The notes beneath the pieces are model-generated. The model did not search any database. It was not told the DNA's origin and was given only the letters and a program-made list of their open reading frames with translations. A stretch of DNA of 64,000 nucleotides from a virus: IMG/VR virus record IMGVR_UViG_3300023313_000005, positions 1-64,000 of that record. One strand, written 5' to 3'. This document shows, piece by piece, positions 25,113-47,650 of the stretch (position 1 is its first letter; each line of letters opens with the position of its first letter). A program made the translations under genes and the position numbers.

Positions 25113-26446
25113 GATATAACACTTTTTAAATTATTAGTTTTATATACGTCATCGTTATTATCTAAATATTCTAGACGTTCATTATTTGCTTTTTTAAATT
25201 TTTCCTTACGTTCTTCAAAATATGAAATTAAATAATTAGATAATTTTTTATCATACACATTATTCAATATTGTTTTAATATGTATTTTAGATTTATTTAT
25301 GATATCTAATTGATTATTTTCAACATAATGAACAAACGCCATACAGAATAATATCCAATTTTTAATTTTATTAAAATTTAATGACGCTCCGTGAGGTCTA
25401 AATTCTATAGTATATGAATTATTATTTCTGATATTAAAATTAGCAGGTATTAAATTAATCCAATTATATCTTGGTAATCGATGCAGTGCGATATCATGTT
25501 GATATCTATCTGTATATCTTCCACCAGGATGATTATATGATTTATTATATTTATTACCTAATTGTCTAGATGGTAATATATGTTGATTTAACATAATATT
25601 ATATAAATATTCGTAAGCTAAATCTATACCATAATAATATCCATATTTTTTAATATAAGGTAATAAAACATAATTAATTTTATTAGCGTATGAATTATTT
25701 TTTCTACTAAGAGGAAGTGTTTCAAATACTTCCTCTTGTAAATGCATCGCTAATAGATTAGATAATACGGTAAATGCTTTATTATTAATAAATCCTCCAA
25801 TGTGAACATGTACGGCACATTTATGATCTATTTCGCATCTTTTATTTATAATATTTAGACTTTGTTTAAGATTATTCATTCCTAAATCACCTGATAAAAT
25901 ACCAGTTACATATTCTCCTCCTAATAAATCACCATCATCATTTACTAATGAACCATCTCTAACACAACTTAAATTTAAATTATGATCTGTATATAAAGCA
26001 GGGTGTAATCTACCACTACATGTTTCAATTTCTACCCCAAAAGTATATTTTAAATGTCCTGTAGAAATGTATGATGGTGATTTTGTGTTATTTGATGAAT
26101 TATGATATTCTGTATACCAACCTATATTTTTATTTTTAAATATAGATTTTTGTATATCATCAACTAAATCTTCACCATTATACGCCTCATATAACCCATA
26201 TTTACGAGCTGTATTTAAAGAATCATAAAATGTAATACGATTATAAGTATTATGTACTATCTTTTTTTCATATATGCCTATTGGGACATAATCTGTACTT
26301 ATAACATATGATGTCTTATCTTTAGTTTTTATTTTAACTAAATGTCTAGTATTAATTACACAAAAACCTGTATCTATATGAATTTTAGGACAGTATATTT
26401 CATATTTATTAGTATTTATAACAAATACACTTTTTTGTTTATCCAT
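25103..26446 (-). CDS. Amidoligase (COOH-NH2 ligase, glutamate-cysteine ligase-like fold)
   Basis: TFGVEIE, DGSL, E.V..IL, C.VHVH, RY.WIN, TIEFR motifs. Confidence 0.85.
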   Translation of the reverse strand: MDKQKSVFVINTNKYEIYCPKIHIDTGFCVINTRHLVKIKTKDKTSYVISTDYVPIGIYEKKIVHNTYNRITFYDSLNTARKYGLYEAYNGEDLVDDIQKSIFKNKNIGWYTEYHNSSNNTKSPSYISTGHLKYTFGVEIETCSGRLHPALYTDHNLNLSCVRDGSLVNDDGDLLGGEYVTGILSGDLGMNNLKQSLNIINKRCEIDHKCAVHVHIGGFINNKAFTVLSNLLAMHLQEEVFETLPLSRKNNSYANKINYVLLPYIKKYGYYYGIDLAYEYLYNIMLNQHILPSRQLGNKYNKSYNHPGGRYTDRYQHDIALHRLPRYNWINLIPANFNIRNNNSYTIEFRPHGASLNFNKIKNWILFCMAFVHYVENNQLDIINKSKIHIKTILNNVYDKKLSNYLISYFEERKEKFKKANNERLEYLDNNDDVYKTNNLKSVISCV

Positions 26447-27641
26447 AATAATCTACTATATTTTGTAATTCATTAACCTTTTTAATAACCTTTGATAATT
26501 TGAATTTTATTTTTTTAGGAACTACTTTTTGAATATTATGTAATTCCTTTTTAATATCAGTAGTTATTTTTTCACATACTTCATATGGATCATCATCATC
26601 TACATTATTTGTTTCGTTATGAAAAAGTTCCATTAATTTTTCAATATTGTCTATTAAAAATATATCATTAGTATTATCATTATAAGTTCTTAATAATTGA
26701 TATACACTATGTGTTTCATTATAAATGATTCTATCTTCTTTCCAAACTCTAGTACTAAATGTTGAAAAATTAAATACAGAACATGCTCCATATTTAGATG
26801 TCATAGTAATCCTACCTTTATAATTATAAACATTGGTAATATTATCAATTTTAGAATATCTAGTAAGACCAACATTATTATTTACCCATAATAAGAATTG
26901 ATTATTTTTTGTTATTTTTACCTTTTTCTTAATTAATGGATTTCTTTTAATTTTAACATTAGACTTATTTAAAATAACACCATCTTTTATTTGATAATGA
27001 ATAAAACTTTTAAATTCTTCAATTTTAGTACATCCTATTATTTTTAAAGGTTCTTTTTCTGAAGAAATATATATACTAGGTTCGTTATTTTGTGTAATTA
27101 TTCCATAATGAAGAGGTCTTTCTTCATCTTTATATATATTTAAGATATTAGTATCTTTAACATGCCACATTAACGCACATGCTCCTTCATAATCTGAAAG
27201 TATTTTAAGATTACCTATCGTATTAATATAATAAGGGAATATTTTAGAATCCACATCAATTGTGTAATTATTAAATGCATTATTTGGATACATATTATTA
27301 TATGTTTTTAATAACATATCTAAATTTCTAAGTGTTCCATTATGAGCACCTACTACATCTCCATACATAAAAGGATGTGTATTTTCAATACATACTGTTC
27401 CTACAGTAGCATGTCTAGTATGTCCTATAAATAAATTACTTTCTTTAAAATCATGATTTGTTAATACTTGATTAATAACTCCTCCTGTTTTTTTAAAAAC
27501 TCTATCTTCCCATTTGATTTTTTTATTATTATTAAAATAACCTGATGAGTGATAACCTCTATCTTGATTAAGAATAAATAATATTTTAATCAAATCTTTA
27601 TTATAATTGTTCTTTCCGGAATAACCTAATAATCCACACAT
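26439..27641 (-). CDS. Class II glutamine amidotransferase with C-terminal extension
   Basis: MCGLLG, RG..SSG, GHTRHAT.G, NTHPF, AHNGT, VDS, ERPL, SSE. Confidence 0.9.
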   Translation of the reverse strand: MCGLLGYSGKNNYNKDLIKILFILNQDRGYHSSGYFNNNKKIKWEDRVFKKTGGVINQVLTNHDFKESNLFIGHTRHATVGTVCIENTHPFMYGDVVGAHNGTLRNLDMLLKTYNNMYPNNAFNNYTIDVDSKIFPYYINTIGNLKILSDYEGACALMWHVKDTNILNIYKDEERPLHYGIITQNNEPSIYISSEKEPLKIIGCTKIEEFKSFIHYQIKDGVILNKSNVKIKRNPLIKKKVKITKNNQFLLWVNNNVGLTRYSKIDNITNVYNYKGRITMTSKYGACSVFNFSTFSTRVWKEDRIIYNETHSVYQLLRTYNDNTNDIFLIDNIEKLMELFHNETNNVDDDDPYEVCEKITTDIKKELHNIQKVVPKKIKFKLSKVIKKVNELQNIVDYYG

Positions 27642-34550: not shown

Positions 34551-34574
34551 AGAAAGGGGAATTACCCCCTTTCT
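34551..34574 (-). terminator. Terminator-like hairpin upstream of polB
   Basis: AGAAAGGGG/CCCCTTTCT stem. Confidence 0.55.
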
Positions 34575-34991: not shown

Positions 34992-35228
34992 TTATAATGA
35001 ATTGAGTTCTTTCCATTTTCCCATAGACATAGACCCTTTATAACTATATTTTAATCCGTATCCACTTCCCCAATTAGTACCTTTTCCACTTCCCTCTCCA
35101 GACCCATTCCCTATTCCGCCTGTTGAACAACATCCACTACCATCCATATATCTATGTGTATAAAGATATTCTATATTATTCATATCTATAAGTATATTGT
35201 CTAATCTATCTATTGTAAAATCTATCAT
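34992..35228 (-). CDS. Array A peptide 18 (78 aa)
   Basis: MIDFTID...GxG repeats. Confidence 0.7.
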   Translation of the reverse strand: MIDFTIDRLDNILIDMNNIEYLYTHRYMDGSGCCSTGGIGNGSGEGSGKGTNWGSGYGLKYSYKGSMSMGKWKELNSL

Positions 35229-35236
35229 ATTATTTT

Positions 35237-35494
35237 TTAATAAATTGAACTATCTAAAATTAAAAATTCATTCCCAGTTCCAAGATCATGTCCCGTCCTT
35301 TCACTTTCACCATAATCTGCTATGTATAAATTTTCATGCTGAGTATTTACTAAACTACAATCTATCCATCCTCCGTATTTATTTCCTCCACCTGTTCCGT
35401 GTCCCATAGAATTAATTTTTGGTGCGGTAGAACTTAAAAATAATACCCCTCTAGGATAACATTCCCCATAATCATTAATATTATAATCTATCAT
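35237..35494 (-). CDS. Array A peptide 17 (85 aa)
   Basis: MIDYNINDYG...GNEFLIL. Confidence 0.7.
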   Translation of the reverse strand: MIDYNINDYGECYPRGVLFLSSTAPKINSMGHGTGGGNKYGGWIDCSLVNTQHENLYIADYGESERTGHDLGTGNEFLILDSSIY

Positions 35495-35745
35495 AATATA
35501 CTAATTTCTTCTCCTTTTCCGATATCATAATGATAAATATATTTATCATTATATGTACTTTCATATCCACATCCATATTTAGTTTCGTACGTGCATTGTA
35601 TATATCCTAACCCACACCCATTTCCATTTTTCTCTCCATACTCAGATGAATTTCCACTTCCGTGCCCATTTCCATATCTATAACCTTGTCCATTTCCTCT
35701 TCCCCCATGTCCCGTTCCTTTATTATTAAGTCTTGTATCTATCAT
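35491..35745 (-). CDS. Array A peptide 16 (84 aa)
   Basis: MIDTRLNNKG...EISIL. Confidence 0.75.
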   Translation of the reverse strand: MIDTRLNNKGTGHGGRGNGQGYRYGNGHGSGNSSEYGEKNGNGCGLGYIQCTYETKYGCGYESTYNDKYIYHYDIGKGEEISIL

Positions 35746-35939
35746 AATATATTTATATATTCATGTCCACATCCTTTTTCATCTATATATCCTATTCCAT
35801 ATCCACTTCCATATCCATCTTTTATTCCCTTTCCTAATCTATCTCCACCATCATCTCCCACTCCTTGTCCATATCCATACCCATTGGCATTCCCGAATTC
35901 ATACCAATTTCCATTATTATTAATATTATAATCTACCAT
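35742..35939 (-). CDS. Array A peptide 15 (65 aa)
   Basis: MVDYNINNNG...YINIL. Confidence 0.75.
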   Translation of the reverse strand: MVDYNINNNGNWYEFGNANGYGYGQGVGDDGGDRLGKGIKDGYGSGYGIGYIDEKGCGHEYINIL

Positions 35940-36238
35940 AATATATTGTTTATATATTCACATCCATCTCCATATCCACTTTCATGATTGTTTCCATATC
36001 CATTTCCGCACCCTTTTCTACAGCTATATCCATATCCATTTCCAAGTCCATCTCCATCTCCACATCCGTATCCTTTTCCATATCCTTTCCCATTTCCATA
36101 TCCATTTCCATTTCCATCTCCATCTCCAAGTCCATCTCCATCTCCATCTCCAAACCAATGCCTATATTTATTTCTATTACTATTTCCACATACTATTCTA
36201 TATCCTTTTTCATTAATATCAAGTGTTGCGTCAATCAT
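35933..36238 (-). CDS. Array A peptide 14 (101 aa)
   Basis: MIDATLDIN...INNILW. Confidence 0.75.
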   Translation of the reverse strand: MIDATLDINEKGYRIVCGNSNRNKYRHWFGDGDGDGLGDGDGNGNGYGNGKGYGKGYGCGDGDGLGNGYGYSCRKGCGNGYGNNHESGYGDGCEYINNILW

Positions 36239-36474
36239 AATATATCAATTTCATTTCCATTTCCGTTAATATATTTATTTATATAGTCATATACATAACC
36301 ATATCCGTATCCATATCCATTTTCATTATTATCATTATTTTCTTCTCCGTATCCTTCTCCGTAATCATCCCCATAACCGTCTCCATGTCCACCTCCATAT
36401 CCATGTCCTTTTTTATATCCAACATCATCAGAGAATATATAACATCCCCTATTATTATATTCTATATCTATCAT
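36235..36474 (-). CDS. Array A peptide 13 (79 aa)
   Basis: MIDIEYNNRG...EIDIL. Confidence 0.75.
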   Translation of the reverse strand: MIDIEYNNRGCYIFSDDVGYKKGHGYGGGHGDGYGDDYGEGYGEENNDNNENGYGYGYGYVYDYINKYINGNGNEIDIL

Positions 36475-36477
36475 AAT

Positions 36478-36711
36478 TTATAAAACAAAAGGTTCTTTCC
36501 ATTTCCCACGGTTATATCTATTCAATCCTATATTTTCACCATCTCCGACTCCTTGTCCATTACCTTTTCCACATTTATCTCCCCATCCACTACCTTCTCC
36601 ACGTCCATTACCTTGACCATATTTATTACCTACTCTTATATCATAATGCATTCCATTATCAATTAAATGTGATTTTTTATATCCATTATCATTATATTTT
36701 GTATCTATCAT
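36478..36711 (-). CDS. Array A peptide 12 (77 aa)
   Basis: MIDTKYNDNG...PFVL. Confidence 0.75.
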   Translation of the reverse strand: MIDTKYNDNGYKKSHLIDNGMHYDIRVGNKYGQGNGRGEGSGWGDKCGKGNGQGVGDGENIGLNRYNRGKWKEPFVL

Positions 36712-36848
36712 AATATATCATTTTCATACCCGTCCCCATACCCGGTTTCATTGTCATGTCCATCTTCACCACCATCTCCATGCCCATATTCATTTCCAAA
36801 CCCATTTTCATATTCTATTCTATTATTAGTAAATGCTGTATCTATCAT
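36708..36848 (-). CDS. Array A peptide 11 (46 aa, not in ORF track)
   Basis: Hand translation: MIDTAFTNNRIEYENGFGNEYGHGDGGEDGHDNETGYGDGYENDIL. Confidence 0.75.
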   Translation of the reverse strand: MIDTAFTNNRIEYENGFGNEYGHGDGGEDGHDNETGYGDGYENDIL

Positions 36849-37078
36849 AATGCGTTATTTTCATATCTTATTCCATAATTATTATATTTATAATTATATT
36901 CCTCTCCTCCACCATGTTTATTTCCATATCCATTCGCATGTCCTTTTCCATACCCATTTCCGTCTTCAAATCCATATCCACTTCCTTCTCTATATCCCCC
37001 TCCTTCTCCATTTCTATATCCTATTTCATGTCCTATTTTATGTCCTGTTCCAATATTATTAAAATTTACATCTATCAT
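36845..37078 (-). CDS. Array A peptide 10 (77 aa; start corrected from 37126)
   Basis: MIDVNFNNIG...ENNAL. Confidence 0.75.
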   Translation of the reverse strand: MIDVNFNNIGTGHKIGHEIGYRNGEGGGYREGSGYGFEDGNGYGKGHANGYGNKHGGGEEYNYKYNNYGIRYENNAL

Positions 37079-37338
37079 GATATAGTATTTACATATCCGT
37101 AACCATTTCCATCTCCATATCCGCATCCATCTATATATCCGTATCCATTTGCATATCCATATCCGTATCCTTTCCCATTTTCATATCCGTCCCCACATCC
37201 ATATCCATTAATATCCCCATCCCCATTTCCATATCCATATCCATATCCATATCCATGTTTACTCTCACATCCGTGTCCTTTTCCGTATCCGTATCCTATT
37301 CCACTATCATTATTATTATTAAATTTTACATCTATCAT
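37075..37338 (-). CDS. Array A peptide 9 (87 aa)
   Basis: MIDVKFNNNN...VNTIS. Confidence 0.75.
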   Translation of the reverse strand: MIDVKFNNNNDSGIGYGYGKGHGCESKHGYGYGYGYGNGDGDINGYGCGDGYENGKGYGYGYANGYGYIDGCGYGDGNGYGYVNTIS

Positions 37339-37514
37339 AATACATCGTTTATATCCTCATTTCTATCGTTTCCGTATCCATCTCCACATCCATTCCCGTA
37401 TCCATCCCCATATCCATATCCATATCCACTTCCATTTCTATCTCCTTGCCCATATTCGTATCCTCTTCCATATCCATATTCTATTCCGATATTACTAAAA
37501 TTTGTATCTATCAT
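37335..37514 (-). CDS. Array A peptide 8 (59 aa, not in ORF track)
   Basis: Hand translation: MIDTNFSNIGIEYGYGRGYEYGQGDRNGSGYGYGYGDGYGNGCGDGYGNDRNEDINDVL. Confidence 0.75.
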   Translation of the reverse strand: MIDTNFSNIGIEYGYGRGYEYGQGDRNGSGYGYGYGDGYGNGCGDGYGNDRNEDINDVL

Positions 37515-37729
37515 AATATACGAATTTCTATTCCTATTCCATTTCTATTTTCATGATTATATTCTTCTCCAAACATAAATCTTTTTCCAAATCCTTTTTT
37601 GAGTTCACTATCATACCATTTTGTATTTTCACTCCATTTTCCAAGTCTAGTACTATATCCTGTTCCAGATTCCTCCCCTAATCTTTCTAAATAACTAAAT
37701 CCCTTATTGTTAAAAGTTCTATCTATCAT
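37511..37729 (-). CDS. Array A peptide 7 (72 aa)
   Basis: MIDRTFNNKG...EIRIL. Confidence 0.75.
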   Translation of the reverse strand: MIDRTFNNKGFSYLERLGEESGTGYSTRLGKWSENTKWYDSELKKGFGKRFMFGEEYNHENRNGIGIEIRIL

Positions 37730-37896
37730 AGTATAGTATAATTATTTCCATTCCCTTCTCCATATTCATTACCATGTCCTCCACCATGTCCGTGACCATA
37801 CCCATTTCCATAATTATCTCCACATGACAATCCATATTTTATTTCAAATGTTATTCCATATCCATTTCCATCAGTATTGATATTCATATCTATCAT
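37726..37896 (-). CDS. Array A peptide 6 (56 aa, not in ORF track)
   Basis: Hand translation: MIDMNINTDGNGYGITFEIKYGLSCGDNYGNGYGHGHGGGHGNEYGEGNGNNYTIL. Confidence 0.75.
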   Translation of the reverse strand: MIDMNINTDGNGYGITFEIKYGLSCGDNYGNGYGHGHGGGHGNEYGEGNGNNYTIL

Positions 37897-38105
37897 AATA
37901 TATCATTTATTTTTTCATAACTATGTCCATATCTATATCCATTTCCTTTACCATATCCATTCCCATTTCCACATCCATTTTTATAATCGTCCCCATTTCT
38001 ACTTCCGGATCCATATCCATATCCTCTTCCGTCTCCATAGCCATTTCCAAATCCAGATCCGTATCCATATCCAACACCATTAATATTAAGTTTTGTATTT
38101 ATCAT
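37893..38105 (-). CDS. Array A peptide 5 (70 aa)
   Basis: MINTKLNING...INDIL. Confidence 0.75.
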   Translation of the reverse strand: MINTKLNINGVGYGYGSGFGNGYGDGRGYGYGSGSRNGDDYKNGCGNGNGYGKGNGYRYGHSYEKINDIL

Positions 38106-38118
38106 AGTACATAAATTT

Positions 38119-38397
38119 TTATTCTATATATATATCATCTCCTATACCATATCCATCTCCCGCACCATTCTTATATCCTTTCCCATTTCCATATATATTT
38201 CCTTTTCCATTTCCACATCCATTCCCGTCTCCACATCCATTTTTATCTCCATATCCACATCCATTTCCAAACCCATTCCCGTACCCTATTCCATTTTCAG
38301 ACTCGCTTCCATATCCATATCCTAATTTACTTCCATACCCATACCCTTCTCCATATTCGTATTCTATTCCGGTATTGTTAAAATATGTATCTATCAT
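38119..38397 (-). CDS. Array A peptide 4 (92 aa)
   Basis: MIDTYFNNTGIEY... Confidence 0.75.
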   Translation of the reverse strand: MIDTYFNNTGIEYEYGEGYGYGSKLGYGYGSESENGIGYGNGFGNGCGYGDKNGCGDGNGCGNGKGNIYGNGKGYKNGAGDGYGIGDDIYIE

Positions 38398-38594
38398 AAT
38401 ATATTATTTTTATCTCCATATCCATAACCATGTCCATTTCCATTTCCATTTCCATATTTCTTTCCGTATTCATATGTATTTCCATACCCATATGCATTTC
38501 CTTTTCCATAATTATATCCAGTATTAGAACTATATCCATCTCCAAATCCATTTCTATATTCTATTCCAGTATTATTAAAACTTGTGTCTATCAT
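38394..38594 (-). CDS. Array A peptide 3 (66 aa)
   Basis: MIDTSFNNTGIEY...KNNIL. Confidence 0.75.
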   Translation of the reverse strand: MIDTSFNNTGIEYRNGFGDGYSSNTGYNYGKGNAYGYGNTYEYGKKYGNGNGNGHGYGYGDKNNIL

Positions 38595-38818
38595 AGTATA
38601 TCATTTATACATCCATATCCACTTCCATCCTCATATCCATTTCCATCCCCACATCCTTCTCCGTATCCATTTCCGTTTCCGTATTCATTGCCATATCCAT
38701 TTCCATCCCCATTTTCATTTCCACATCCATTTCCGTACCCATATCCGTATCCTATTCCATTTTCATATCCATATTCATCTTCACCATATCCATTAATATT
38801 AAGTTTTGTATCTATCAT
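38591..38818 (-). CDS. Array A peptide 2 (75 aa)
   Basis: MIDTKLNING...INDIL. Confidence 0.75.
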   Translation of the reverse strand: MIDTKLNINGYGEDEYGYENGIGYGYGYGNGCGNENGDGNGYGNEYGNGNGYGEGCGDGNGYEDGSGYGCINDIL

Positions 38819-39012
38819 AATATATTTTCATTTCCGCGTCCATACCCATATCCGTATCCATCTCCATTTCCTTGTCCATGTCCATGTCCATATCCCCCAT
38901 ATCCATTTCCGTGTCCCCTTCCATCTCCATTTCCATGTCTATTCCCAGATCCATATTGACTATCATAACTGATTTTATGATGTCCTGTACTATTAAAATA
39001 TATATCTATCAT
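38815..39012 (-). CDS. Array A peptide 1 (65 aa)
   Basis: MIDIYFNSTG...NENIL. Confidence 0.75.
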   Translation of the reverse strand: MIDIYFNSTGHHKISYDSQYGSGNRHGNGDGRGHGNGYGGYGHGHGQGNGDGYGYGYGRGNENIL

Positions 39013-39025
39013 AACTCATAAAATT

Positions 39026-39052
39026 AAAAGGGGAGATATTACTCTCCCCTTT
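39026..39052 (-). terminator. Terminator-like hairpin at the head of array A
   Basis: AAAGGGGAGA/TCTCCCCTTT stem followed by a T-run on the minus strand. Confidence 0.7.
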
Positions 39053-39078
39053 ATTTGACTAAAATTTAGTGCATTGAC

Positions 39079-39486
39079 TTAAAGATTAATAGCAGTCTGA
39101 GCTTCACGTTCTCGGATTTGGTCTTCCATTTTCTGAATAATAGCATCTATGCTCTCTGCAGACTTAGATGATATCTTCCAATAAGGAATAGTAGAGAATT
39201 GTTCAACTGCCTCATCAGTCATTCTAATAACTTCTATGGCAGTCATACTATTTTGAATTACAGGCATTGTAAATTCACATTCAGAGGGTTTACTAGAACC
39301 TAAAGTAGCTAATTCTGATAGAGTATGAGCTCCTGCCCAAGACCTAATTCTTCTTGTTTTTTGGAGTGTTACATACATTCCATTTTTGGTATCTTTAACA
39401 TTTACTAATTTACCAAAATGTACTCCTGCAGAGTATGTTCTTACAATTACTTGTTCGCCTAAATCTGGATGATTTGTGTTTTCCAT
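39079..39486 (-). CDS. DUF6948-like protein
   Basis: VIVRTYSAGVHFG, RRI.SW.GA.TLSELA..G, IEVI motifs (recalled family signature). Confidence 0.7.
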   Translation of the reverse strand: MENTNHPDLGEQVIVRTYSAGVHFGKLVNVKDTKNGMYVTLQKTRRIRSWAGAHTLSELATLGSSKPSECEFTMPVIQNSMTAIEVIRMTDEAVEQFSTIPYWKISSKSAESIDAIIQKMEDQIREREAQTAINL

Positions 39487-39505
39487 GGTTTTTGTTTATT
39501 AATTA

Positions 39506-39772
39506 TTAATCAATTGAGTTCATCATTTTTTTAGTTACAGGATTATATTCCTGTTGTACTATTTTTATTACACATGGGGTATCTTCACTTGTTTTTACAG
39601 TAAAGTGATGACCATGCTCCACAATAACAGCCCCATTAGGTTCCAGAACTACTGTACCCATTTTTTCAAACTTCTTAATTACTTTTACATCAGTAGATTT
39701 CTTTAAATCCACATAATGTTCTCCATTACTGTGCTCCAGAATCAATTTCTGATTTTCTTGTTCTGTATTCAT
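39506..39772 (-). CDS. Small HxxH protein, copy A
   Basis: EHGHH and QQEYNPVTK; paralog of 45504-45770. Confidence 0.75.
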   Translation of the reverse strand: MNTEQENQKLILEHSNGEHYVDLKKSTDVKVIKKFEKMGTVVLEPNGAVIVEHGHHFTVKTSEDTPCVIKIVQQEYNPVTKKMMNSID

Positions 39773-39788
39773 TTGTTTGTTTTTATGC

Positions 39789-40550
39789 TCAAGATTGAGC
39801 GGTTAATAATTCAAAATATGATTTTTTAGACATATGTATAGGATCTTCATTAGGTAAAGGTACTATTTTCTTATCCATTTCAAATAAGAATACATCTCCT
39901 TGACGTATAATACTTTTAATATGACCTTCCATAGATGGATAATACATACATAAACTAGCAACTGCTTCTAAAGGAGATCCATTTTTAAAATGTTCAGGTA
40001 CCCATAACCAATGTTCGTCATTAGTACTAGTACAATGACATCTAATTACAGGTACTATAGGATCTTCTACTGCATCAGGATCTTGTAATTTTGTAATATC
40101 CACATGCCATAGTTCATACATTACATGATAATCTATTTCCTCCATCTTATCTAATGTTTCATTATATACCCTATTGATAAGATGTTCTCCTTCAGTTTTT
40201 ATTCTTTCTGAAGGTAAATTATCCATCATCTCTCTAATAGAAATAACTCCAAATAAAGCAGCTCTATAGTTGCTATTTTTAATGCTAAATGCCTCTTGAT
40301 AGGTATATTTATCAAAAGCATCCCAATAAGCCATTAATCCCTCTATATAAGCGGCTTCTTCAAATTCCCCATAAGTACAAATATCTTCAATCATAGGATC
40401 AAAGAATCTGGATTTAGCCCGTTTAAAATTATCATTGTACTTTGTTTTTAAAAATCTTATGATTGTAGGATCTTTTAAGGTAGCATTATTCACCTGAAAA
40501 GTTTTACTCTCTGAGTAGTACGTAATACCTTCAATTGGTAATGTTTTCAT
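39789..40550 (-). CDS. DUF6745-like protein, copy A
   Basis: YEL, CHCTST..EHWLWV, A.AS, RQGDVF, YF.LLTAQS; paralog of 45736-46554. Confidence 0.7.
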   Translation of the reverse strand: MKTLPIEGITYYSESKTFQVNNATLKDPTIIRFLKTKYNDNFKRAKSRFFDPMIEDICTYGEFEEAAYIEGLMAYWDAFDKYTYQEAFSIKNSNYRAALFGVISIREMMDNLPSERIKTEGEHLINRVYNETLDKMEEIDYHVMYELWHVDITKLQDPDAVEDPIVPVIRCHCTSTNDEHWLWVPEHFKNGSPLEAVASLCMYYPSMEGHIKSIIRQGDVFLFEMDKKIVPLPNEDPIHMSKKSYFELLTAQS

Positions 40551-40583
40551 AATTAATTAATCTGTTTGTGTTTATATCTGTAT

Positions 40584-40826
40584 TTATTTTTGTAAAATAC
40601 CAAAAGAATCTCCGTTTCCTTTTGAAGTTGATAAATTTAATATTATTCCAGTTCCTACATCAGATTCATATTCAAGTCTATGTATATTTCCTTTTCCATT
40701 TCCTTTACCATCACCAATTCCTATCCCATCACCATCACCATATCCAGTTCCTTGGTTATATCCTAAACTATCTATTAATGAATCTAAACCTCCACGTCCA
40801 GTTTTTTTAAATTTATAATCTATCAT
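40584..40826 (-). CDS. Outlying MID-family Gly-rich peptide (80 aa)
   Basis: MIDYKFKKTG...GDGDGIGIGDG...FGILQK. Confidence 0.7.
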   Translation of the reverse strand: MIDYKFKKTGRGGLDSLIDSLGYNQGTGYGDGDGIGIGDGKGNGKGNIHRLEYESDVGTGIILNLSTSKGNGDSFGILQK

Positions 40827-41016
40827 TATTAAATGTAATAACTATTTTTTCTATTCCATATCCAGGTCTAGATATTTGTTCTTTGCATTCGTTATTTAAA
40901 TCATGTGTAACTGAAGCTTCAATTATAATATTTCTGATAATTTTATGTTGACTCACATAATAAGAAACTTCAGAATCTACAAAACTTCCGAAATTAGTAA
41001 AGTTTATATCTATCAT
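40813..41016 (-). CDS. Outlying MID-family peptide (67 aa; start corrected from 41058)
   Basis: MIDINFTNFG...; junction ATATTATGATAGATA identical to array A. Confidence 0.6.
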   Translation of the reverse strand: MIDINFTNFGSFVDSEVSYYVSQHKIIRNIIIEASVTHDLNNECKEQISRPGYGIEKIVITFNNDRL

Positions 41017-41026
41017 AATATACATA

Positions 41027-41164
41027 TTATTTTTGAGTACGTAATCTTTCCACCTCATTCTCCATTACCTGAAGTAACTTCTGAAGTTGGTTGTACGTTG
41101 GTAGGTCGTTGTAAGATAGTGATAATTCCACACCATCTCTTTCAAAGGTTATCTTGTTTTTCAT
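41027..41164 (-). CDS. Hypothetical protein (45 aa, not in ORF track)
   Basis: Hand translation: MKNKITFERDGVELSLSYNDLPTYNQLQKLLQVMENEVERLRTQK. Confidence 0.45.
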   Translation of the reverse strand: MKNKITFERDGVELSLSYNDLPTYNQLQKLLQVMENEVERLRTQK

Positions 41165-41200
41165 TCTATAACTCTTTTGTCATTACATCTAAGTTTGAGA

Positions 41201-41458
41201 CTACACAAGCTCAAAATACCTCTCAAATTCCCAAACAACCCAATCTCTTTTACTTCTTGATAGCTTTGATTTTTTCTGTTGGATTAATTCGTATTCTTTC
41301 ACAATATCAACCGATAACATTTGTTTTGACCTTTTATCATAAAAGTCAGTAAAACCAAAAGCGGCACTCATAGTTAATATAGTTGTCATTGTTTTACTTA
41401 TCGGTTTCCTTTTTGGGAGTTCTCTTTCCCTGTATTTCAATCCGTTTATTTCTATCAT
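41201..41458 (-). CDS. Hypothetical protein
   Basis: 85 aa; EYELIQQKKSKLSRSKRD motif; ATGA-coupled. Confidence 0.65.
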   Translation of the reverse strand: MIEINGLKYRERELPKRKPISKTMTTILTMSAAFGFTDFYDKRSKQMLSVDIVKEYELIQQKKSKLSRSKRDWVVWEFERYFELV

Positions 41459-41655
41459 TTCACAACTCTTTTAATATTTCCTCTATTTATTAATTCTTGA
41501 CATTCTTCAAGAGTTCCTTGACAATCAATAAATTCTATATGTTTTACTCTCCATGCAAAATATCCATCTGTTTTTAAATCCCTAAATCTATTAGGAAATC
41601 TACTTACTTGGATTCCGAATTTACCATTTTCAAATTCTACTATTCTTGGTTTCAT
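41455..41655 (-). CDS. Hypothetical protein
   Basis: 66 aa; A-rich initiation region. Confidence 0.6.
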   Translation of the reverse strand: MKPRIVEFENGKFGIQVSRFPNRFRDLKTDGYFAWRVKHIEFIDCQGTLEECQELINRGNIKRVVK

Positions 41656-41665
41656 TTGTTTTGTT

Positions 41666-41842
41666 TTAATATTTTAAATCTTCTGTAATTATATCTATAA
41701 CTACCATTAATAATACTATAAATAATACTACCCGAATCCGAAACAATGTATCTAAATCTGTTATATTTATATCATTTTTGAGGAATATTACAAGAATTAG
41801 AGAAATTCCTACTACTGATAGGTATTTGATTAGTTTTTTCAT
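41666..41842 (-). CDS. Small two-TM membrane protein, tandem paralog 2 (58 aa, not in ORF track)
   Basis: MKKLIKYLSVVGISLILVIFLKNDINITDLDTLFRIRVVLFIVLLMVVIDIITEDLKY. Confidence 0.65.
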   Translation of the reverse strand: MKKLIKYLSVVGISLILVIFLKNDINITDLDTLFRIRVVLFIVLLMVVIDIITEDLKY

Positions 41843-41846
41843 CTTA

Positions 41847-42020
41847 TTAATCTATATCTTTTGTTATTACAGCTGTGAGGATTATAAATAGCGCTGTAAA
41901 TGCTATCATTGCAAATCTATCAAAAGGAGATGATTCCATTATATTAGTGTCACCTTTGATGAATATTATAAGAAGTAAGGTAAGCCCTACTACTGATAGG
42001 TATTTGATTAGCTTTCTCAT
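41847..42020 (-). CDS. Small two-TM membrane protein, tandem paralog 1 (57 aa, not in ORF track)
   Basis: MRKLIKYLSVVGLTLLLIIFIKGDTNIMESSPFDRFAMIAFTALFIILTAVITKDID. Confidence 0.65.
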   Translation of the reverse strand: MRKLIKYLSVVGLTLLLIIFIKGDTNIMESSPFDRFAMIAFTALFIILTAVITKDID

Positions 42021-42289
42021 TCCTTTTTGTCTTTAATGAATACTTTTAATGTTCTTCCCTCGTCTTGTAAACTCAACTCTACTTCGCAATGCTTGTTTTT
42101 GTTTACGTATTTTCTGCCTTTCGGGTCTATCACCTCTACTCTGGTGACTTCGCTTAATTCTACTAGCGTTCCTTTCACCACCCAATCTTCAAAGCCGTCA
42201 AACTCCGCACAGCTTCTTTCCATTTCTTCCAACTCCTCCTCTGTGACTAGACGAAGTTCGTTGTCTGATAGTTCAATTAGTATCTTCAT
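42017..42289 (-). CDS. Hypothetical protein
   Basis: 90 aa; VTRVEVID..GR.YV...SLQDEGRTLKVF. Confidence 0.7.
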   Translation of the reverse strand: MKILIELSDNELRLVTEEELEEMERSCAEFDGFEDWVVKGTLVELSEVTRVEVIDPKGRKYVNKNKHCEVELSLQDEGRTLKVFIKDKKE

Positions 42290-42436
42290 TTTGTTTTGTT
42301 TTTTAAACTAACACGTTGTATGTGGTCTGAACGTCTTGACAAGCATAATAATAAATGTCTGCAGTTCCCGTTCGTGTTGCCTCATATTAACATTGTTTAT
42401 ACGCCATGCTGCGCACGGGCGCATACACGGGTGTTA

Positions 42437-42736
42437 TCAACAAGGTGGTTTGCACCATTCTTTTACTATCATATTTTCAAAGTTGTATTTCCAGCAATTA
42501 TCATTTTCCCACCATTCATTAATTCCGTATTTACCATTTTCGTATTTAACAAACACTTGTTTGTCATCAGTAGGTAAGGCATCTTTAATCGCTACCCAAT
42601 TGCTAATATGTGGTATAGATAATTGCTCTATACAGTGGTTTATTAATTCGTGTAAAGTCCAGTAACTATCGCAGTTGTTGTCTATTTTTTCAACTGGGTT
42701 TATTCCCATTTCTTCTAATAATTTTCTTGTTGTCAT
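42437..42736 (-). CDS. DUF551-like protein
   Basis: WVAIKDALP...V..W..PP C-terminal pattern. Confidence 0.6.
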   Translation of the reverse strand: MTTRKLLEEMGINPVEKIDNNCDSYWTLHELINHCIEQLSIPHISNWVAIKDALPTDDKQVFVKYENGKYGINEWWENDNCWKYNFENMIVKEWCKPPC

Positions 42737-42748
42737 TTTGGTTTTATT

Positions 42749-42994
42749 TTAAAGTTCAACTCTTTTTTTGTAGTAAATCTCGTCCGTGATTCCATCCTCC
42801 AACTCTATCACTAAGACAATGTCCTCACCCCTTTCCTCTCTGGTCACAGAAAGCACCCCCACATCTTCACTGATTAGCCGCCCGTCCAATGTTTCCACGA
42901 TGGTGGGCATATCTATTATCTGATCTCGCTTGAAGTGCTCCTCGTGGAAGACTACTCCGTCTGTGGTTATTCGTTTGTATGGGCTTATATCCAT
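42749..42994 (-). CDS. Hypothetical protein
   Basis: 81-aa ORF in the operon. Confidence 0.55.
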   Translation of the reverse strand: MDISPYKRITTDGVVFHEEHFKRDQIIDMPTIVETLDGRLISEDVGVLSVTREERGEDIVLVIELEDGITDEIYYKKRVEL

Positions 42995-43512
42995 GATGAT
43001 TTTTCAATTAATTCCTTATGGAATTCTGCAAACTTTTTTGCTCTTTTTTTTGTTGGGAAAGCAAGGAATGATATTTTATCGCGTGTTTCTAGAATCTCAT
43101 AACTTGGCTCCCCACAAATAGGTAGTATTATAGATTTAGCTGTTTTATCGTACCATTCTAAATTCTTTTCTTCTTCCCAATTTGGACTCCAATCTCCATT
43201 ATAATCAGCTACCAATTGGGATAGCATGGCTTTGGCAATACTAGCTTCTGCTTGCTTTCTTGTTTTGAATATATTACCATCATTATCAGTTCTGCGTGGA
43301 ATACCTATTGGATAAATATTACTAAAAGCATCTATCCAATACCCTCCTACTTTTTCTAACTCTTCCCGAGTCTTTAATTTCCCTTCTTGTGGCTCTTCCT
43401 TGAGTGTCTTTAACACCCTCTCCAATTCTGGAATATCTTTTTTTGAAACTGTGATTTTGACTGTGTCGGTATTCAATTCTGTTACTTTCATGTTATTTGT
43501 TTTTGATTGCAT
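42985..43512 (-). CDS. Hypothetical protein
   Basis: 175 aa; FKT..QAEA, N.DW.PNW, F.T...A..F motifs. Confidence 0.7.
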   Translation of the reverse strand: MQSKTNNMKVTELNTDTVKITVSKKDIPELERVLKTLKEEPQEGKLKTREELEKVGGYWIDAFSNIYPIGIPRRTDNDGNIFKTRKQAEASIAKAMLSQLVADYNGDWSPNWEEEKNLEWYDKTAKSIILPICGEPSYEILETRDKISFLAFPTKKRAKKFAEFHKELIEKSSWI

Positions 43513-44080
43513 TTTCTAAATGTAAAAAGTACGCTTTATATGCTTTGTACATTGCTTCTATTCTGATAAATTCTTCTGTACCTCTTTTTGTTTCAAATTC
43601 GTCATCACCCTTAAACCATTCATCCCATTGTTCAATAGTTTTGCATTCACATCCAATTTTTATTTTATTATTCACTATACCAAAACTCCATTTTGAGTAA
43701 ATAGGCATAATTGCATTACTTATATCTGCTCTACGAAGGTTTACCCCGTCAAAGTTTACTCCACGAAGGTCTGATTCACGAAGGTCTGCTTCATCGAGGA
43801 TTGATTCACAAAGGTTTGCTCCACGAAGGTCTGCTCTGTAAAGGTTTGCTCCACGAAAATCTACTCTACGAAGGTTGGTTTCATAAAGATTTGCTCCACG
43901 AAGGTTAGCTTCATAAAAGTTGGCTTCAAAAAGGTTGGCTCCACAAAAATTTGCTTCAAAAAGATTGGCCCCATGAAAGTCTGCCCCACGGAGGTCAGCT
44001 CTACGCAAGTAGGCTCCTATTAATGTATCGCCTTCAATTTCTTTTAATACTTTTCCGTTAAAATCTTTAATTTGTATCAT
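43493..44080 (-). CDS. Pentapeptide repeat protein
   Basis: About 20 A(D/N)(L/F)xx repeats; C-terminal IKIGC....I..W domain. Confidence 0.9.
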   Translation of the reverse strand: MIQIKDFNGKVLKEIEGDTLIGAYLRRADLRGADFHGANLFEANFCGANLFEANFYEANLRGANLYETNLRRVDFRGANLYRADLRGANLCESILDEADLRESDLRGVNFDGVNLRRADISNAIMPIYSKWSFGIVNNKIKIGCECKTIEQWDEWFKGDDEFETKRGTEEFIRIEAMYKAYKAYFLHLENAIKNK

Positions 44081-44135
44081 GACTTTTTGATTACATTTTT
44101 TAATGTAATAAATATATCAACAATATTTATTTATA

Positions 44136-44288
44136 TTACAATTCATAACTTAATATATGTTTATATTTAATATGAGTATAAGGCGTAAACATTGAATTAA
44201 ATTTATTTGCAATCATTATAGTAAATTTTAAATTTGGATAATCAAGTCTAGTACGTGCTTTACAATCTTTGAGTATTACCAGTTTCAT
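44136..44288 (-). CDS. Array B peptide 9 (50 aa)
   Basis: MKLVILKDCKARTRLDYPNLKFTIMIANKFNSMFTPYTHIKYKHILSYEL. Confidence 0.7.
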   Translation of the reverse strand: MKLVILKDCKARTRLDYPNLKFTIMIANKFNSMFTPYTHIKYKHILSYEL

Positions 44289-44434
44289 AGTTTATAAGTT
44301 TTTTTAGATTCGTATATAATATGACTATAGGGTAAATATACTGAATAATATCTAGTAGATATTATTATATTGTATGGTTCATTATAATAACTAATACTTT
44401 TTGCTTTACAATTTTTAAGTATAATTAATTTCAT
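44285..44434 (-). CDS. Array B peptide 8 (49 aa)
   Basis: MKLIILKNCKAKSISYYNEPYNIIISTRYYSVYLPYSHIIYESKKTYKL. Confidence 0.7.
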   Translation of the reverse strand: MKLIILKNCKAKSISYYNEPYNIIISTRYYSVYLPYSHIIYESKKTYKL

Positions 44435-44583
44435 AGCTCATAAAAATTTTTAGATTTGTATCTAATACGACTATAAGGTAAATATAATGAATGATATGCA
44501 TCAGATATTATTATATCATATGGCATAAAATATTGACTGAGTGTATTTATTGTTTTACAATCTCTAAATATTATTAACTTCAT
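44431..44583 (-). CDS. Array B peptide 7 (50 aa)
   Basis: MKLIIFRDCKTINTLSQYFMPYDIIISDAYHSLYLPYSRIRYKSKNFYEL. Confidence 0.7.
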   Translation of the reverse strand: MKLIIFRDCKTINTLSQYFMPYDIIISDAYHSLYLPYSRIRYKSKNFYEL

Positions 44584-44723
44584 GGCCAATAAAAGGTTAT
44601 ACTTTTATAATATATCTTAAAATAAGGAGTATAAAATATCTTATATCTAAAATCTATATAAAGGTTAGAATCATCTGGTTTATTAGTATGAAATTCACAA
44701 TTTTTAATTACAATTAGTCTCAT
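44580..44723 (-). CDS. Array B peptide 6 (47 aa)
   Basis: MRLIVIKNCEFHTNKPDDSNLYIDFRYKIFYTPYFKIYYKSITFYWP. Confidence 0.7.
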   Translation of the reverse strand: MRLIVIKNCEFHTNKPDDSNLYIDFRYKIFYTPYFKIYYKSITFYWP

Positions 44724-44860
44724 AAGTAATAAGTAGTTATAGTTTTAAATTTAATTTTATAGCGAGAAAAACAAAATATATTATTTTGTAATACTATAGG
44801 GTAAGTTACGTATTTAAGTTCATTAGCTAGTTTACAGTCTTTAAGTGTTATTAGTTTCAT
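44720..44860 (-). CDS. Array B peptide 5 (46 aa)
   Basis: MKLITLKDCKLANELKYVTYPIVLQNNIFCFSRYKIKFKTITTYYL. Confidence 0.7.
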   Translation of the reverse strand: MKLITLKDCKLANELKYVTYPIVLQNNIFCFSRYKIKFKTITTYYL

Positions 44861-45003
44861 ACCATATGAATTTTCATTTTTTCACCTTTTATACAAAAAT
44901 TAAAAGTGTATAATGTTATAAATTGATAATCTAAAAGTACACTATAAAATATAGATGAATGATAATCATGTATTACACAATTTTTTATTATTATTAATCT
45001 CAT
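44857..45003 (-). CDS. Array B peptide 4 (48 aa)
   Basis: MRLIIIKNCVIHDYHSSIFYSVLLDYQFITLYTFNFCIKGEKMKIHMV. Confidence 0.7.
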   Translation of the reverse strand: MRLIIIKNCVIHDYHSSIFYSVLLDYQFITLYTFNFCIKGEKMKIHMV

Positions 45004-45155
45004 AATTGATACATTTTACAATTTCCAAATTTTACATTTTTAATACTTATTAATGCATATGAAGTAGTAGATACATGATATTTATAGCATATAAGATCTA
45101 CAAAAGGTAAATATTGAGTAAAATCTTCATTTATAGGAATTACTATTAAATTCAT
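45000..45155 (-). CDS. Array B peptide 3 (51 aa)
   Basis: MNLIVIPINEDFTQYLPFVDLICYKYHVSTTSYALISIKNVKFGNCKMYQL. Confidence 0.65.
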   Translation of the reverse strand: MNLIVIPINEDFTQYLPFVDLICYKYHVSTTSYALISIKNVKFGNCKMYQL

Positions 45156-45301
45156 AACTCATATTTGTTAGAATAACTATACATAATACAAATATCACTT
45201 AGGTATAAAAGATAATTATTACTACATAGATCTGAATTTAATACAATATTTGAAATAGAAGAAGTAATATCGGCATATTTATTTAATAGTACTAAAGTCA
45301 T
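45152..45301 (-). CDS. Array B peptide 2 (49 aa)
   Basis: MTLVLLNKYADITSSISNIVLNSDLCSNNYLLYLSDICIMYSYSNKYEL. Confidence 0.7.
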   Translation of the reverse strand: MTLVLLNKYADITSSISNIVLNSDLCSNNYLLYLSDICIMYSYSNKYEL

Positions 45302-45447
45302 AATTCATATCTATTAGAATATTTATATGTAATGCAAATATTACCTATATATAAAAGATAAATATCACTATATAGATCTGAAATTAACCTATCGTTTGAT
45401 GAAAGCATAAAAATATCATCATATTTATTTAATATTACTAAAGTCAT
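45298..45447 (-). CDS. Array B peptide 1 (49 aa; start corrected from 45507)
   Basis: MTLVILNKYDDIFMLSSNDRLISDLYSDIYLLYIGNICITYKYSNRYEL. Confidence 0.7.
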   Translation of the reverse strand: MTLVILNKYDDIFMLSSNDRLISDLYSDIYLLYIGNICITYKYSNRYEL

Positions 45448-45465
45448 ATTTTGTTGTGTTGTAAT

Positions 45466-45496
45466 AAAAAGGTGCAGAGAATTTCCCCACACCTTT
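45466..45496 (-). terminator. Terminator-like hairpin at the head of array B
   Basis: Minus strand AAAGGTGTGGGGA-aat-TCTCTGCACCTTT (with G-U pairs) followed by a T-run. Confidence 0.6.
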
Positions 45497-45503
45497 AACC
45501 CTA

Positions 45504-45770
45504 TCAATCAAATGCATCCTGTAACATTTTAGTTACAGGGTTCAGCTCTTGTTGAGTATATTTAATGATGTTTTCACTTTCTGTTTTTAATGTCCCATGC
45601 TCGCCATGGGTTACTATTCCGTTACTACCTGTTTTGATGAGAAGAGCACCTTTATACTCCTCACTAACAATGTCCCCTTTTACCTCTAAAGTATGAGGAT
45701 GGGTAGACTTTTGAATTATTAATTTTTCCATTATATTAAGATTGTGCTGTGAGTAATCCAAAATACTCAT
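45504..45770 (-). CDS. Small HxxH protein, copy B (start may be the internal MEKLII)
   Basis: THPH, THGEH, QQELNPVTK; paralog of 39506-39772. Confidence 0.75.
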   Translation of the reverse strand: MSILDYSQHNLNIMEKLIIQKSTHPHTLEVKGDIVSEEYKGALLIKTGSNGIVTHGEHGTLKTESENIIKYTQQELNPVTKMLQDAFD

Positions 45771-46554
45771 CAGCTGTTAAACTTCTTTTTTTGGGGTTGT
45801 AAGATATTAAATCTTTTAGTTCTTCAATATCTTTATCATATTCTGTGATAAAAACATCTCCTTGACGTTTTATCTCTTTGATGTAAGGAATAACTGATTC
45901 ATGAAAGACTGCCGTAGATGCTATGGCTGTTAAAGCACTATTGTCTTCAGGTTTATTTACCCAAAGATAATGCTCTTCATTAGTAGTGGTACACCAGCAC
46001 TTAACTACATATAGTTTATTAGTACTAAATTTAGTTCCATCAACTTCTAGTAATTCATAAACTACATGGTAATCTTTCATACCGGTAAAATTACCTTCAT
46101 AATCGAATGTTTTATGAGTTACTTCCTTACCTCCTACATCTATAGTAGTATAACCCATACCCTCTATCAATTCTTTTACATCCAACAATTCAAATACTAA
46201 AATTTGAAAGGCATTATTTTTGATTTCGAATGCCTCTTTAAATGTTATAGGAGGAATATCCTCCCACATATCTAATAGTATCTCTACTTTAGACACACAA
46301 CTTTTAAAAATGTTAGCACCTTCTATTTCTTCTCCTTCGGCTATTTTCTTGTCAATTTTTTCAGGGAGCTCTCGGAATTTGTTTATAATAGTATTTTCAA
46401 ATTCTTTCTTAGTTCCCTTCAACTTATAATATTGGATAAGTTCTTTTTTTGTAATACCTATCCAAATATCAGTTGTTGCCTCGTATTTTAATTCTGATGT
46501 TACCTCTATGATATGGAGGTTTTTTAACTTACGAAGTTTATTTTCATCTTTCAT
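45736..46554 (-). CDS. DUF6745-like protein, copy B
   Basis: YEL, CWCTTT..EHYLWV, AIAS, RQGDVF, YF.LLTAQS. Confidence 0.7.
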   Translation of the reverse strand: MKDENKLRKLKNLHIIEVTSELKYEATTDIWIGITKKELIQYYKLKGTKKEFENTIINKFRELPEKIDKKIAEGEEIEGANIFKSCVSKVEILLDMWEDIPPITFKEAFEIKNNAFQILVFELLDVKELIEGMGYTTIDVGGKEVTHKTFDYEGNFTGMKDYHVVYELLEVDGTKFSTNKLYVVKCWCTTTNEEHYLWVNKPEDNSALTAIASTAVFHESVIPYIKEIKRQGDVFITEYDKDIEELKDLISYNPKKRSLTADEYFGLLTAQS

Positions 46555-47625: not shown

Positions 47626-47650
47626 AAAAAGGGGGAGTAATTCCCCCTTT
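47626..47650 (-). terminator. Terminator-like hairpin immediately upstream of the tRNA
   Basis: AAAGGGGGA-gtaat-TCCCCCTTT. Confidence 0.6.

Follow-up and report, generated by a model that had tools for sequence, protein, structure and literature searches.

The first 64,000 nucleotides of the 75,553-base viral record IMGVR_UViG_3300023313_000005 (hereinafter, the window), which originates from a microbial-mat metagenome and is estimated to be 76% complete, encode two copies of a two-gene unit (hereinafter, the hub pair) that consists of a large and a small protein and is accompanied by tandem arrays of tiny paralogous genes. Comparison with relatives from viral and metagenomic sequences shows that, in one of the two clades of the hub family (clade I), the hub genes are regularly followed by a terminator-like hairpin and then by arrays of tiny paralogs, and that the family of the array tracks the subfamily of the hub. 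The window region itself is a composite of three components: a pair of genes encoding a DUF6948 protein and a glycine-rich protein (Gly-X), in which Gly-X is amplified (18 + 2 copies); two anciently diverged hub units; and an orphan family of nine genes. Tentatively, with a probability of roughly 0.45, we favor the interpretation that the linkage between hub and arrays is functional, with the arrays serving as diversified partner proteins of the hub core. The association of the hub with arrays, the longer bacterial forms of the hub and the orphan array family are new in this analysis.

Organization of the hub and array genes

All hub and array genes of the window are located on the minus strand. 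Hub pair B consists of a large protein of 272 amino acids (aa) (45736-46554) and a small protein of 88 aa (45504-45770), and is followed by array B (44136-45447), nine chained open reading frames (ORFs) of 46-51 aa that form an orphan family (family B). Hub pair A includes a large protein of 253 aa (39789-40550) and a small protein of 88 aa (39506-39772) that is the paralog of its counterpart in hub B; downstream of these genes are the DUF6948 gene (39079-39486; 135 aa) and array A (34992-39012), which comprises 18 chained Gly/Asn/Tyr-rich ORFs of 46-101 aa. Two diverged members of the array A family (family A) are located upstream of hub pair A (40584-40826 and 40813-41016); both start with MIDxxF, and the 40826-40584 protein retains the Gly-X core whereas the 41016-40813 protein lacks it. 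There are exactly two copies of the hub in the genome. The two large proteins share 35% identity (E = 5e-34), and so do the two small proteins (35%, E = 9e-12).

This duplicated architecture had been described in an initial annotation that was made from the sequence alone, and the analysis bears out its main components, namely, the paralogy of the hub proteins, the DUF6948 gene beside hub A, the hairpins with GC-rich stems and U runs between the hub genes and the arrays (39052-39027 and 45496-45466), the contiguous run of 18 Gly-rich ORFs (39012-34992) with two additional head-bearing members upstream, and the nine abutting ORFs behind hub B (45447-44136).

Array families track hub subfamilies

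At least 137 relatives of the large hub protein were detected in IMG/VR and 325 in a metagenome collection. Homologs of the large and small proteins are encoded by adjacent genes in 70 of the approximately 78 viral loci. A tree of 65 large hub proteins splits into clade I (29 rows), which includes both copies from the window, and clade II (36 rows). Within clade I, hub A groups with the hubs of loci L001 and L032, which are likewise located next to DUF6948 and Gly-X genes (support 95/97), and not with hub B, which falls into the same clade apart from this group. Given this grouping, the duplication of the hub appears to be old, or else one of the copies was acquired. DUF6915, DUF4241 and a helicase are encoded in the neighborhood of clade II hubs but yield no functional lead. 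In 42 of the clade II loci (L033-L077), the gene for the large hub protein comes directly after a conserved gene of about 232 aa that has no Pfam family, and DUF6915 is encoded about 700 bases upstream; in 19 loci, a gene for a DEAD/ResIII helicase is located about 1 kb downstream of the hub.

A further 80 hub loci from metagenomes were assigned to the subfamilies of hub A (A-type, 23 loci) and hub B (B-type, 57 loci); many of these contigs have short flanks, in which the absence of a gene is uninformative. The 23 A-type metagenome loci together with the viral ones form 16 clusters that are 37-72% identical to each other. DUF6948 and/or Gly-X is present in all 16 clusters, and DUF6948 is present in all 12 clusters with a long enough flank. 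The A-type loci display at least five different gene orders, and each array has a conserved head of its own, for example, MNIKISRG (11 copies), MVFEVENSLC (8 copies) or MNIVVETYG (6 copies). Three or more copies of Gly-X were found in 9 of 17 hub-linked clusters compared to 2 of 77 loci that lack the hub (Fisher p = 1e-6, with kinship ignored).

The B-type loci have a different partner. DUF6948 or Gly-X was found in none of the 57 metagenome loci of this type. In 33 of these 57 loci and in 18 of the approximately 32 viral B-type loci, the retrieved flanks (at most 8 kb) contain small MORN_2-like genes, which often abut the hub. The range extends from a single MORN-like gene about 10 bp upstream of the gene for the large hub protein, in one subclade, to 46 ORFs that match the MORN hidden Markov model (HMM) within 16 kb. 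The assignment to MORN is exemplified by an array member from L018 that matches MORN_2 (PF07661) with 55 bits against a cut-off of 29.6; in this locus, the distance between the MORN genes and the hub reaches 6 kb. No MORN-like small genes were detected in clade II hub loci or in hub-less DUF6948 loci, and the MORN HMM has no match in the window. Loci L230 (16.4 kb), L219 and L220 carry 34-46 ORFs matching this HMM within 10-16 kb around a B-type hub, which places them among the densest small-gene arrays of this analysis.

The layout of hub genes, hairpin and array of tiny paralogs proposed from the window alone thus recurs in other phages, in both hub subfamilies. The accompanying suggestion that each hub comes with its own library of small proteins holds in that A-type hubs go with DUF6948/Gly-X and B-type hubs with MORN-like genes; it does not hold in that the primary partner of Gly-X is DUF6948, as described below.

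Tandem families of repeat proteins are not limited to the hub loci. Repeat-protein gene families have been reported in giant viruses (PMC5753266). The MORN_2-like arrays of the hub B relatives resemble these families and the tandem MORN-repeat arrays of large phages in consisting of diversified tandem paralogs with conserved ends; the window differs in that it contains no MORN gene and its family B is unrelated to MORN. We found no description of a link between MORN-type arrays and a conserved hub pair.

The hub proteins

The large hub protein contains the invariant motifs Cys-x-Cys-Thr-x-Thr..Glu-His and Arg-x-Gly-Asp and an invariant Glu; the large protein of hub B retains the C-x-C-T-x-T..E-H, R-x-G-D, E and Y-F columns. 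Among 27 homologs of the small protein, the invariant positions are H26, H55, H58, Q73, E75, P78 and a C-terminal D. Together, the invariant residues of the two proteins suggest a shared metal site, and the hub pair is probably a two-subunit metal-binding protein.

Searches with the hub proteins were largely negative. The large protein has no match in GenBank phages (tblastn) and no family in Pfam, NCBIfam or PADLOC, and PHROGs yielded only chance-level matches (E of at least 0.001). The AlphaFold2 model of the large protein of hub A, with a mean predicted local distance difference test score (pLDDT) of 90, has no confident fold match: the best Foldseek hit in the Protein Data Bank (PDB) has an E of 0.056, and the best Z in a wide VIA-align search is 4.5; a profile of the family compared to PDB sequences likewise found nothing. 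The small protein matches only unnamed viral clusters in the Atlas, and none of its 27 family members belongs to a Pfam family. The hub proteins, their bacterial homologs and DUF6948 all lack a match in PADLOC-DB, which covers anti-phage defense and candidate systems.

The large protein had been labeled DUF6745-like. This label finds no support at the sequence level, with no Pfam match at E ≤ 0.1 for the two proteins from the window or at E ≤ 0.01 for 16 members of the family. What resemblance there is to this Pfam family is a weak match at the level of the fold: the DUF6745 protein of Microcystis phage LMM01 ranks second in the Foldseek search of a viral structure library (probability 0.99, E 0.05, template modeling (TM) score 0.17-0.25, 23% identity over 106 columns). 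A literature search found no paper on DUF6745. An ADP-ribosyltransferase, suggested by the C-T-S-T motif, was also considered for the large hub protein and dropped because there was no such enzyme among the best rows of the fold search with the hub model.

DUF6948 and the glycine-rich array

The 39486-39079 protein passes the Pfam model of DUF6948 (PF22253) with an E of 3.8e-19 (69 bits against a cut-off of 27). Its AlphaFold2 model (pLDDT 91) consists of an Sm-like barrel with an extra C-terminal helix. The Foldseek list for this model includes mostly Sm/LSm proteins (probability of about 1.0, TM score by target of 0.55-0.71, E of 0.02-0.09), and the model superimposes on archaeal Sm proteins with a root mean square deviation of 2.5-2.8 Å over 85-87 columns, at a sequence identity to Sm proteins of only 9-17%; a profile compared to PDB sequences retrieved nothing. 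DUF6948 from the window is therefore predicted to adopt the Sm/LSm fold, a bent beta-barrel of five strands. DUF6948 was absent from the papers found in the literature search.

To characterize the DUF6948 neighborhood, 80 loci were taken from the more than 557 matches in IMG/VR. A Gly-X (GxGxG-rich) ORF is located on the same strand directly behind the DUF6948 gene in 67 of these 80 loci, usually overlapping the DUF6948 stop codon. The hub is present in 3 of the 80 loci and missing from the other 77; conversely, Gly-rich ORFs occur in only 5 of 79 hub loci, all five of which also encode DUF6948. Hence the primary, near-universal partner of Gly-X is DUF6948 rather than the hub. Many of the IMG/VR contigs (L088, L090, L096, L101, L122, L134, L155, L159 and others) stop inside a Gly-X ORF, a few hundred bases past DUF6948, which implies that the repeats often break assemblies and that the Gly-X copy numbers are probably undercounted.

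Array A begins 66 nucleotides past the DUF6948 gene, behind the hairpin and on the same strand, which makes the two a DUF6948 + Gly-X pair, and the array is an amplified form of this widespread phage pair. It shares with the typical pair a true DUF6948 gene, the Sm-like fold and a Gly at approximately every second residue of the core. It differs in having 18-20 copies of Gly-X instead of one, in its Asn/Tyr/Lys-rich rather than Ser/Asp/Tyr-rich composition, in the hairpin that stands in place of an overlapping Gly-X start, and in the hub pair that is embedded in the module. A looser analogy is with Sm/LSm/Hfq proteins that carry Gly-rich or RG-rich tails, such as SmD1 and the Hfq of Acinetobacter: the Sm-like barrel, predicted in the case of DUF6948, and the Gly-rich low-complexity part are common to both, the difference being that the Gly-rich tail of those proteins belongs to the same chain, whereas in the window it is a separate, amplified polypeptide. 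The literature search found no description of glycine-rich paralog arrays in phages.

The proteins of array A have conserved heads of the form MID(T)xFNNxG and tails that are mostly N(D)IL, and their cores contain 26% Gly, 12% Asn and 12% Tyr. Four-nucleotide ATGA overlaps are found at 13 of the 17 junctions. The cores are about 32% identical in adjacent and non-adjacent copies alike, with no pair exceeding 51%, and all 18 frames are intact. Because the divergence is the same regardless of adjacency, the array is old; a test for recent tandem duplication gave no adjacency signal, and the intact yet diverged frames argue for long-term selection on each copy over a recent burst of amplification. 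A 17-mer from an array A junction produced 36 single, scattered matches in IMG/VR and no sister array. In one contig of the source run, at a depth of 27, position 37445 is followed by 18 other letters and then by position 38173, so that 727 bases, or about four array units, are missing; the joint may reflect either variation in copy number or a misjoin caused by the repeats. In a second assembly, made from this run by a different assembler and not independent given that the sample is the same, both arrays are covered at an even depth of about 35-45x, so that a collapsed or inflated repeat is unlikely. The metatranscriptome of the same sample yielded nothing for the region, which speaks neither for nor against expression.

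The orphan array

ORFs 1 and 7 of array B begin at an internal ATG rather than at the TTG that is shown in the ORF list. The proteins of family B are rich in Tyr and Ile (Tyr 12%, compared to 6% in the large proteins of this phage) and, on reading of the sequences, lack hydrophobic stretches of a length that could form a membrane helix. Neighbors in the array are slightly more similar to each other than distant copies (0.37 vs 0.29, p = 0.03), a weak effect. A family B profile searched against 1.84 billion representative proteins retrieved only its own peptides and two junk repeat proteins, which is weak evidence given that small ORFs often remain uncalled; the family B HMM found only its own members in the 159 fetched loci, and comparison with MORN showed no relation (hhalign probability 0.1%). 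Family B occupies the position in which the hub B relatives carry MORN-like arrays. Just downstream of array B (43493-44080, minus strand) is a gene for a 195-aa pentapeptide-repeat protein (Pfam E = 4e-33); the pentapeptide-repeat family includes DNA-mimic protectors of gyrase, such as MfpA and Qnr.

Both arrays are reminiscent of the homogeneous polyimmunity loci of polymorphic-toxin systems, which consist of tandem, distantly related small paralogs and have been suggested to be expressed from one polycistronic message, as a set that is ready in advance for a variety of toxins (Zhang et al. 2012, PMC3482391). Those loci belong to bacterial chromosomes, whereas the arrays described here belong to a phage, and no immunity family (SUKH, Imm and others) was detected in a Pfam scan of one member of each array family; indeed, neither of these two proteins has any Pfam match at E < 0.001.

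Terminator-like hairpins

Four minus-strand hairpins look, judging by their sequences, like intrinsic terminators. Between hub pair B and array B lies a 13-bp stem (45466-45496; -15.9 kcal/mol, z-score -3.4) and between DUF6948 and array A, a 10-bp stem (39027-39052; -16.5 kcal/mol, z-score -4.3), each followed by a U run. The other two are a terminator-like hairpin that marks the end of the array A unit, ahead of the gene for DNA polymerase (34551-34574), and one upstream of the phosphoesterase and hub B genes (47628-47650). The AAGGGG..CCCCTT motif of the hairpin between DUF6948 and array A occurs three times in the window compared to 0.01 expected. The hairpins split the minus strand into a segment with the phosphoesterase and hub B, a segment that extends from array B to hub A and DUF6948, a segment with array A and a 128-aa membrane-type ORF, and the polymerase. 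A terminator-like hairpin is also present between the hub gene and the array in loci L205, L217, L200, L026 and L006, and L213 contains an unscored candidate hairpin in this position.

The overlaps between consecutive array genes also account for the C-terminal Leu that both array families share and that had been taken for an element of common design, possibly a docking strand. In the TTATGA stop/start overlap, the A of each new ATG is at the same time the final letter of the preceding TTA codon, so that the terminal Leu is forced in both families.

Bacterial homologs of the hub

The hub pair was detected in 13 bacterial genomes, all of which are Bacteroidota or unclassified metagenome-assembled genomes. 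In 9 of the 13 loci, the conserved C-terminal domain of the hub makes up the end of a protein of 588-674 aa. Among four of these long proteins that were scanned, a receptor-L-domain scored above the Pfam cut-off in one and just below it in another. In loci L280-L288 (around positions 4480-6560; Kordia, Tenacibaculum, Chitinophagales, Chryseobacterium and others), the small hub gene is immediately upstream of the gene for the long hub-domain protein. In one Flavobacterium locus, a protein with the leucine-rich repeat (LRR) domain LRR_4 follows the hub pair. The chromosomal hub pair of Flavobacterium caseinilyticum (L277:2012-7898) is surrounded by a GmrSD-type restriction enzyme, a protein in which a DnaA-type ATPase domain is joined to FtsZ/tubulin domains, and an LRR_4 protein, a setting that looks like a defense island or a mobile element.

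Functional linkage or a shared location

Under a functional linkage between the hub and the arrays, the two hub proteins would act as a shared core, either as an effector or in processing, and the arrays would supply diversified, interchangeable small partners (binders, decoys or clients) recognized by their conserved N-terminal heads; the Gly-X proteins, presumably disordered, would dock through a DUF6948 ring. The arrays would be expressed as coupled transcripts of their own or by read-through of the terminator, and their likely role would be action on host proteins or host defenses early in infection. We favor a functional link because the subfamily-specific partners survive rearrangement of the loci, Gly-X is amplified more often in the company of the hub, the genes are tightly adjacent, and the bacterial forms of the hub are longer and partly repeat-like.

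Several observations weigh against such a link. The initial annotation implied that hub homologs would regularly come with arrays and that arrays would be tied to hubs, and neither expectation holds throughout. All 36 clade II rows are array-free, and therefore the hub can do without arrays. Gly-X, for its part, has a universal partner of its own and forms arrays in the absence of the hub (L086 and L095). Given the terminator-like hairpin between them, the hub and the array are probably separate transcription units. Moreover, the three array families, that is, disordered Gly-X, MORN hairpins and the orphan family B, are structurally unrelated, so that a single shared mode of docking is unlikely, and the presence of family B in the MORN position looks like replacement of cargo at a fixed site. 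Finally, the A-type link amounts to one change in the tree and may have arisen only once, in an ancestor; the statistics overstate the independence of the loci.

Much of this evidence fits an alternative under which the association is one of location only. The hub would be a conserved gene that ends an operon, and a hyperplastic site behind its terminator would gather each lineage's own small genes, as independent 'moron'-like units. We regard this explanation as a serious contender, at somewhat less than even odds. It accommodates the terminator that separates the hub from the array, both in the window and in five or more other loci, the array-free hubs of clade II, the occurrence of three structurally unrelated cargo families at the same position (with the B-type hub of the window having the orphan family and not MORN), the Gly-X arrays without hubs, and the MORN genes that are located up to 6 kb off the hub in L018. 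What it leaves unaccounted for is the persistence of DUF6948/Gly-X as neighbors of A-type hubs across five or more gene orders and down to 37% identity, the location of the single MORN-like gene of one subclade about 10 bp upstream of the large hub gene, and the far greater frequency of Gly-X amplification in loci with a hub. Nor does it predict the longer bacterial hub proteins (9 of 13) with a weak repeat-like match, or the LRR protein encoded alongside the hub.

A more far-reaching variant of the functional interpretation, which we consider unlikely, casts the hub pair as the effector core of a modular system of phages and Bacteroidota whose many targets would be reached through exchangeable recognition proteins. 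In bacteria, these proteins would form part of the longer hub protein or be encoded next to it as an LRR protein; in phages, they would come as free, amplified libraries (MORN-like proteins, Gly-X via the DUF6948 ring, or family B). If true, this would be a prokaryotic-virus counterpart of the ankyrin/F-box families of poxviruses or of the LRR-plus-ligase effectors.

Two further explanations assign the tiny proteins a different fate. Under the first, the hub would be a metal-dependent modifying or processing enzyme and the tiny proteins its substrates, with a leader-like head and a variable core, as in the prochlorosins, a system of ribosomally synthesized and post-translationally modified peptides (RiPPs) in which one enzyme acts on many substrates. 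The conserved heads of 8-20 residues and hypervariable cores found in every array, along with the invariant Cys, His, Glu and Asp of both hub proteins, which fit a metal site, are compatible with this proposal. It is nonetheless very unlikely: RiPP clusters include a recognized modifying enzyme, protease or transporter, and scans of the hub proteins and the scanned neighbors with Pfam, PHROGs, NCBIfam and PADLOC detected no known family of RiPP enzymes, proteases or exporters; with very short heads and cores of 40-90 aa, the array proteins are the opposite of typical RiPP precursors; the members of the MORN-like arrays are folded repeat proteins, not peptides; and DUF6948 + Gly-X pairs mostly lack a hub. 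Under the second, the heads would be capsid-targeting tags and the arrays a variable cargo that is packaged and injected with the DNA to blunt host defenses. The internal proteins of phage T4 carry a capsid-targeting tag of roughly 10 residues, and a short conserved N-terminal head followed by a hypervariable body, in tandem phage genes, fits this pattern; however, the arrays belong to the replication/early block, the terminase and portal genes are encoded on the other strand, and no link to a prohead protease was found, making this explanation highly improbable.

That the arrays are low-complexity non-coding DNA or a misassembly, with accidental ORFs, is barely credible: other frames are also open in the Gly-X region and there is the odd joint between 37445 and 38173 in the source-run contigs, but 27 ORFs abut exactly, mostly with ATGA overlaps, in AT-rich, stop-prone DNA, the heads are conserved, homologous Gly-X genes follow DUF6948 in 67 of 80 other loci, and depth is even across the arrays in the second assembly of the same sample.

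Other features of the genome

The G+C content ranges from 20 to 37% across the window and from 24 to 33% in the DNA of arrays A and B. The window encodes a family B DNA polymerase, ribonucleotide reductase, primase, a GroEL-like chaperonin, terminase and portal, along with one tRNA-Leu. The closest matches of the DNA polymerase among GenBank phages are Proteus and Klebsiella phages, at about 38% identity; we found nothing that would point to Crassvirales, an order mentioned in the initial annotation. A Bacteroidota host is plausible because the bacterial homologs of the hub all come from Bacteroidota or unclassified metagenome-assembled genomes.

A giant plus-strand ORF (2-14806), which runs off the start of the contig and encodes at least 4,934 aa, takes up about one fifth of the record; it contains a superfamily 1 helicase/AAA_30 region (approximately residues 370-610) and a PD-(D/E)XK nuclease domain (approximately residues 3855-4020). 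The GroEL-like chaperonin (55559-57181, plus strand) matches its PHROG with an E of 7e-135. The large terminase (57857-61072, plus strand) is unusually long, 1,071 aa, and its N-terminal half also matches DnaC-like loader and primase P-loop families, such that it may be a fusion or the carrier of an inserted domain. An amidoligase-like gene adjoins a glutamine-amidotransferase-like gene (25103-27641, minus strand), and this pair could modify a nucleotide or a peptide. Between the two arrays (41666-42020, minus strand) is a third tandem family that consists of two paralogs of 57-58 aa, which start with M(K/R)KLIKYLSVVG and contain hydrophobic stretches.

Implications

Tandem families of tiny, fast-diverging phage proteins constitute a large and barely tested pool of host-directed functions. 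In the record described here, 29 such genes take up about 5.6 kb, or roughly 7% of the 75.5 kb. A conserved two-protein unit that is found in phages beside three unrelated kinds of such arrays offers a point of entry. If the link is functional, the hub would be a handle for finding out what the arrays act on and would define a new family of proteins that probably contain a metal site. Even under a purely positional link, the hub pair would still be useful for marking hypervariable accessory islands in uncultured Bacteroidota-type phages.

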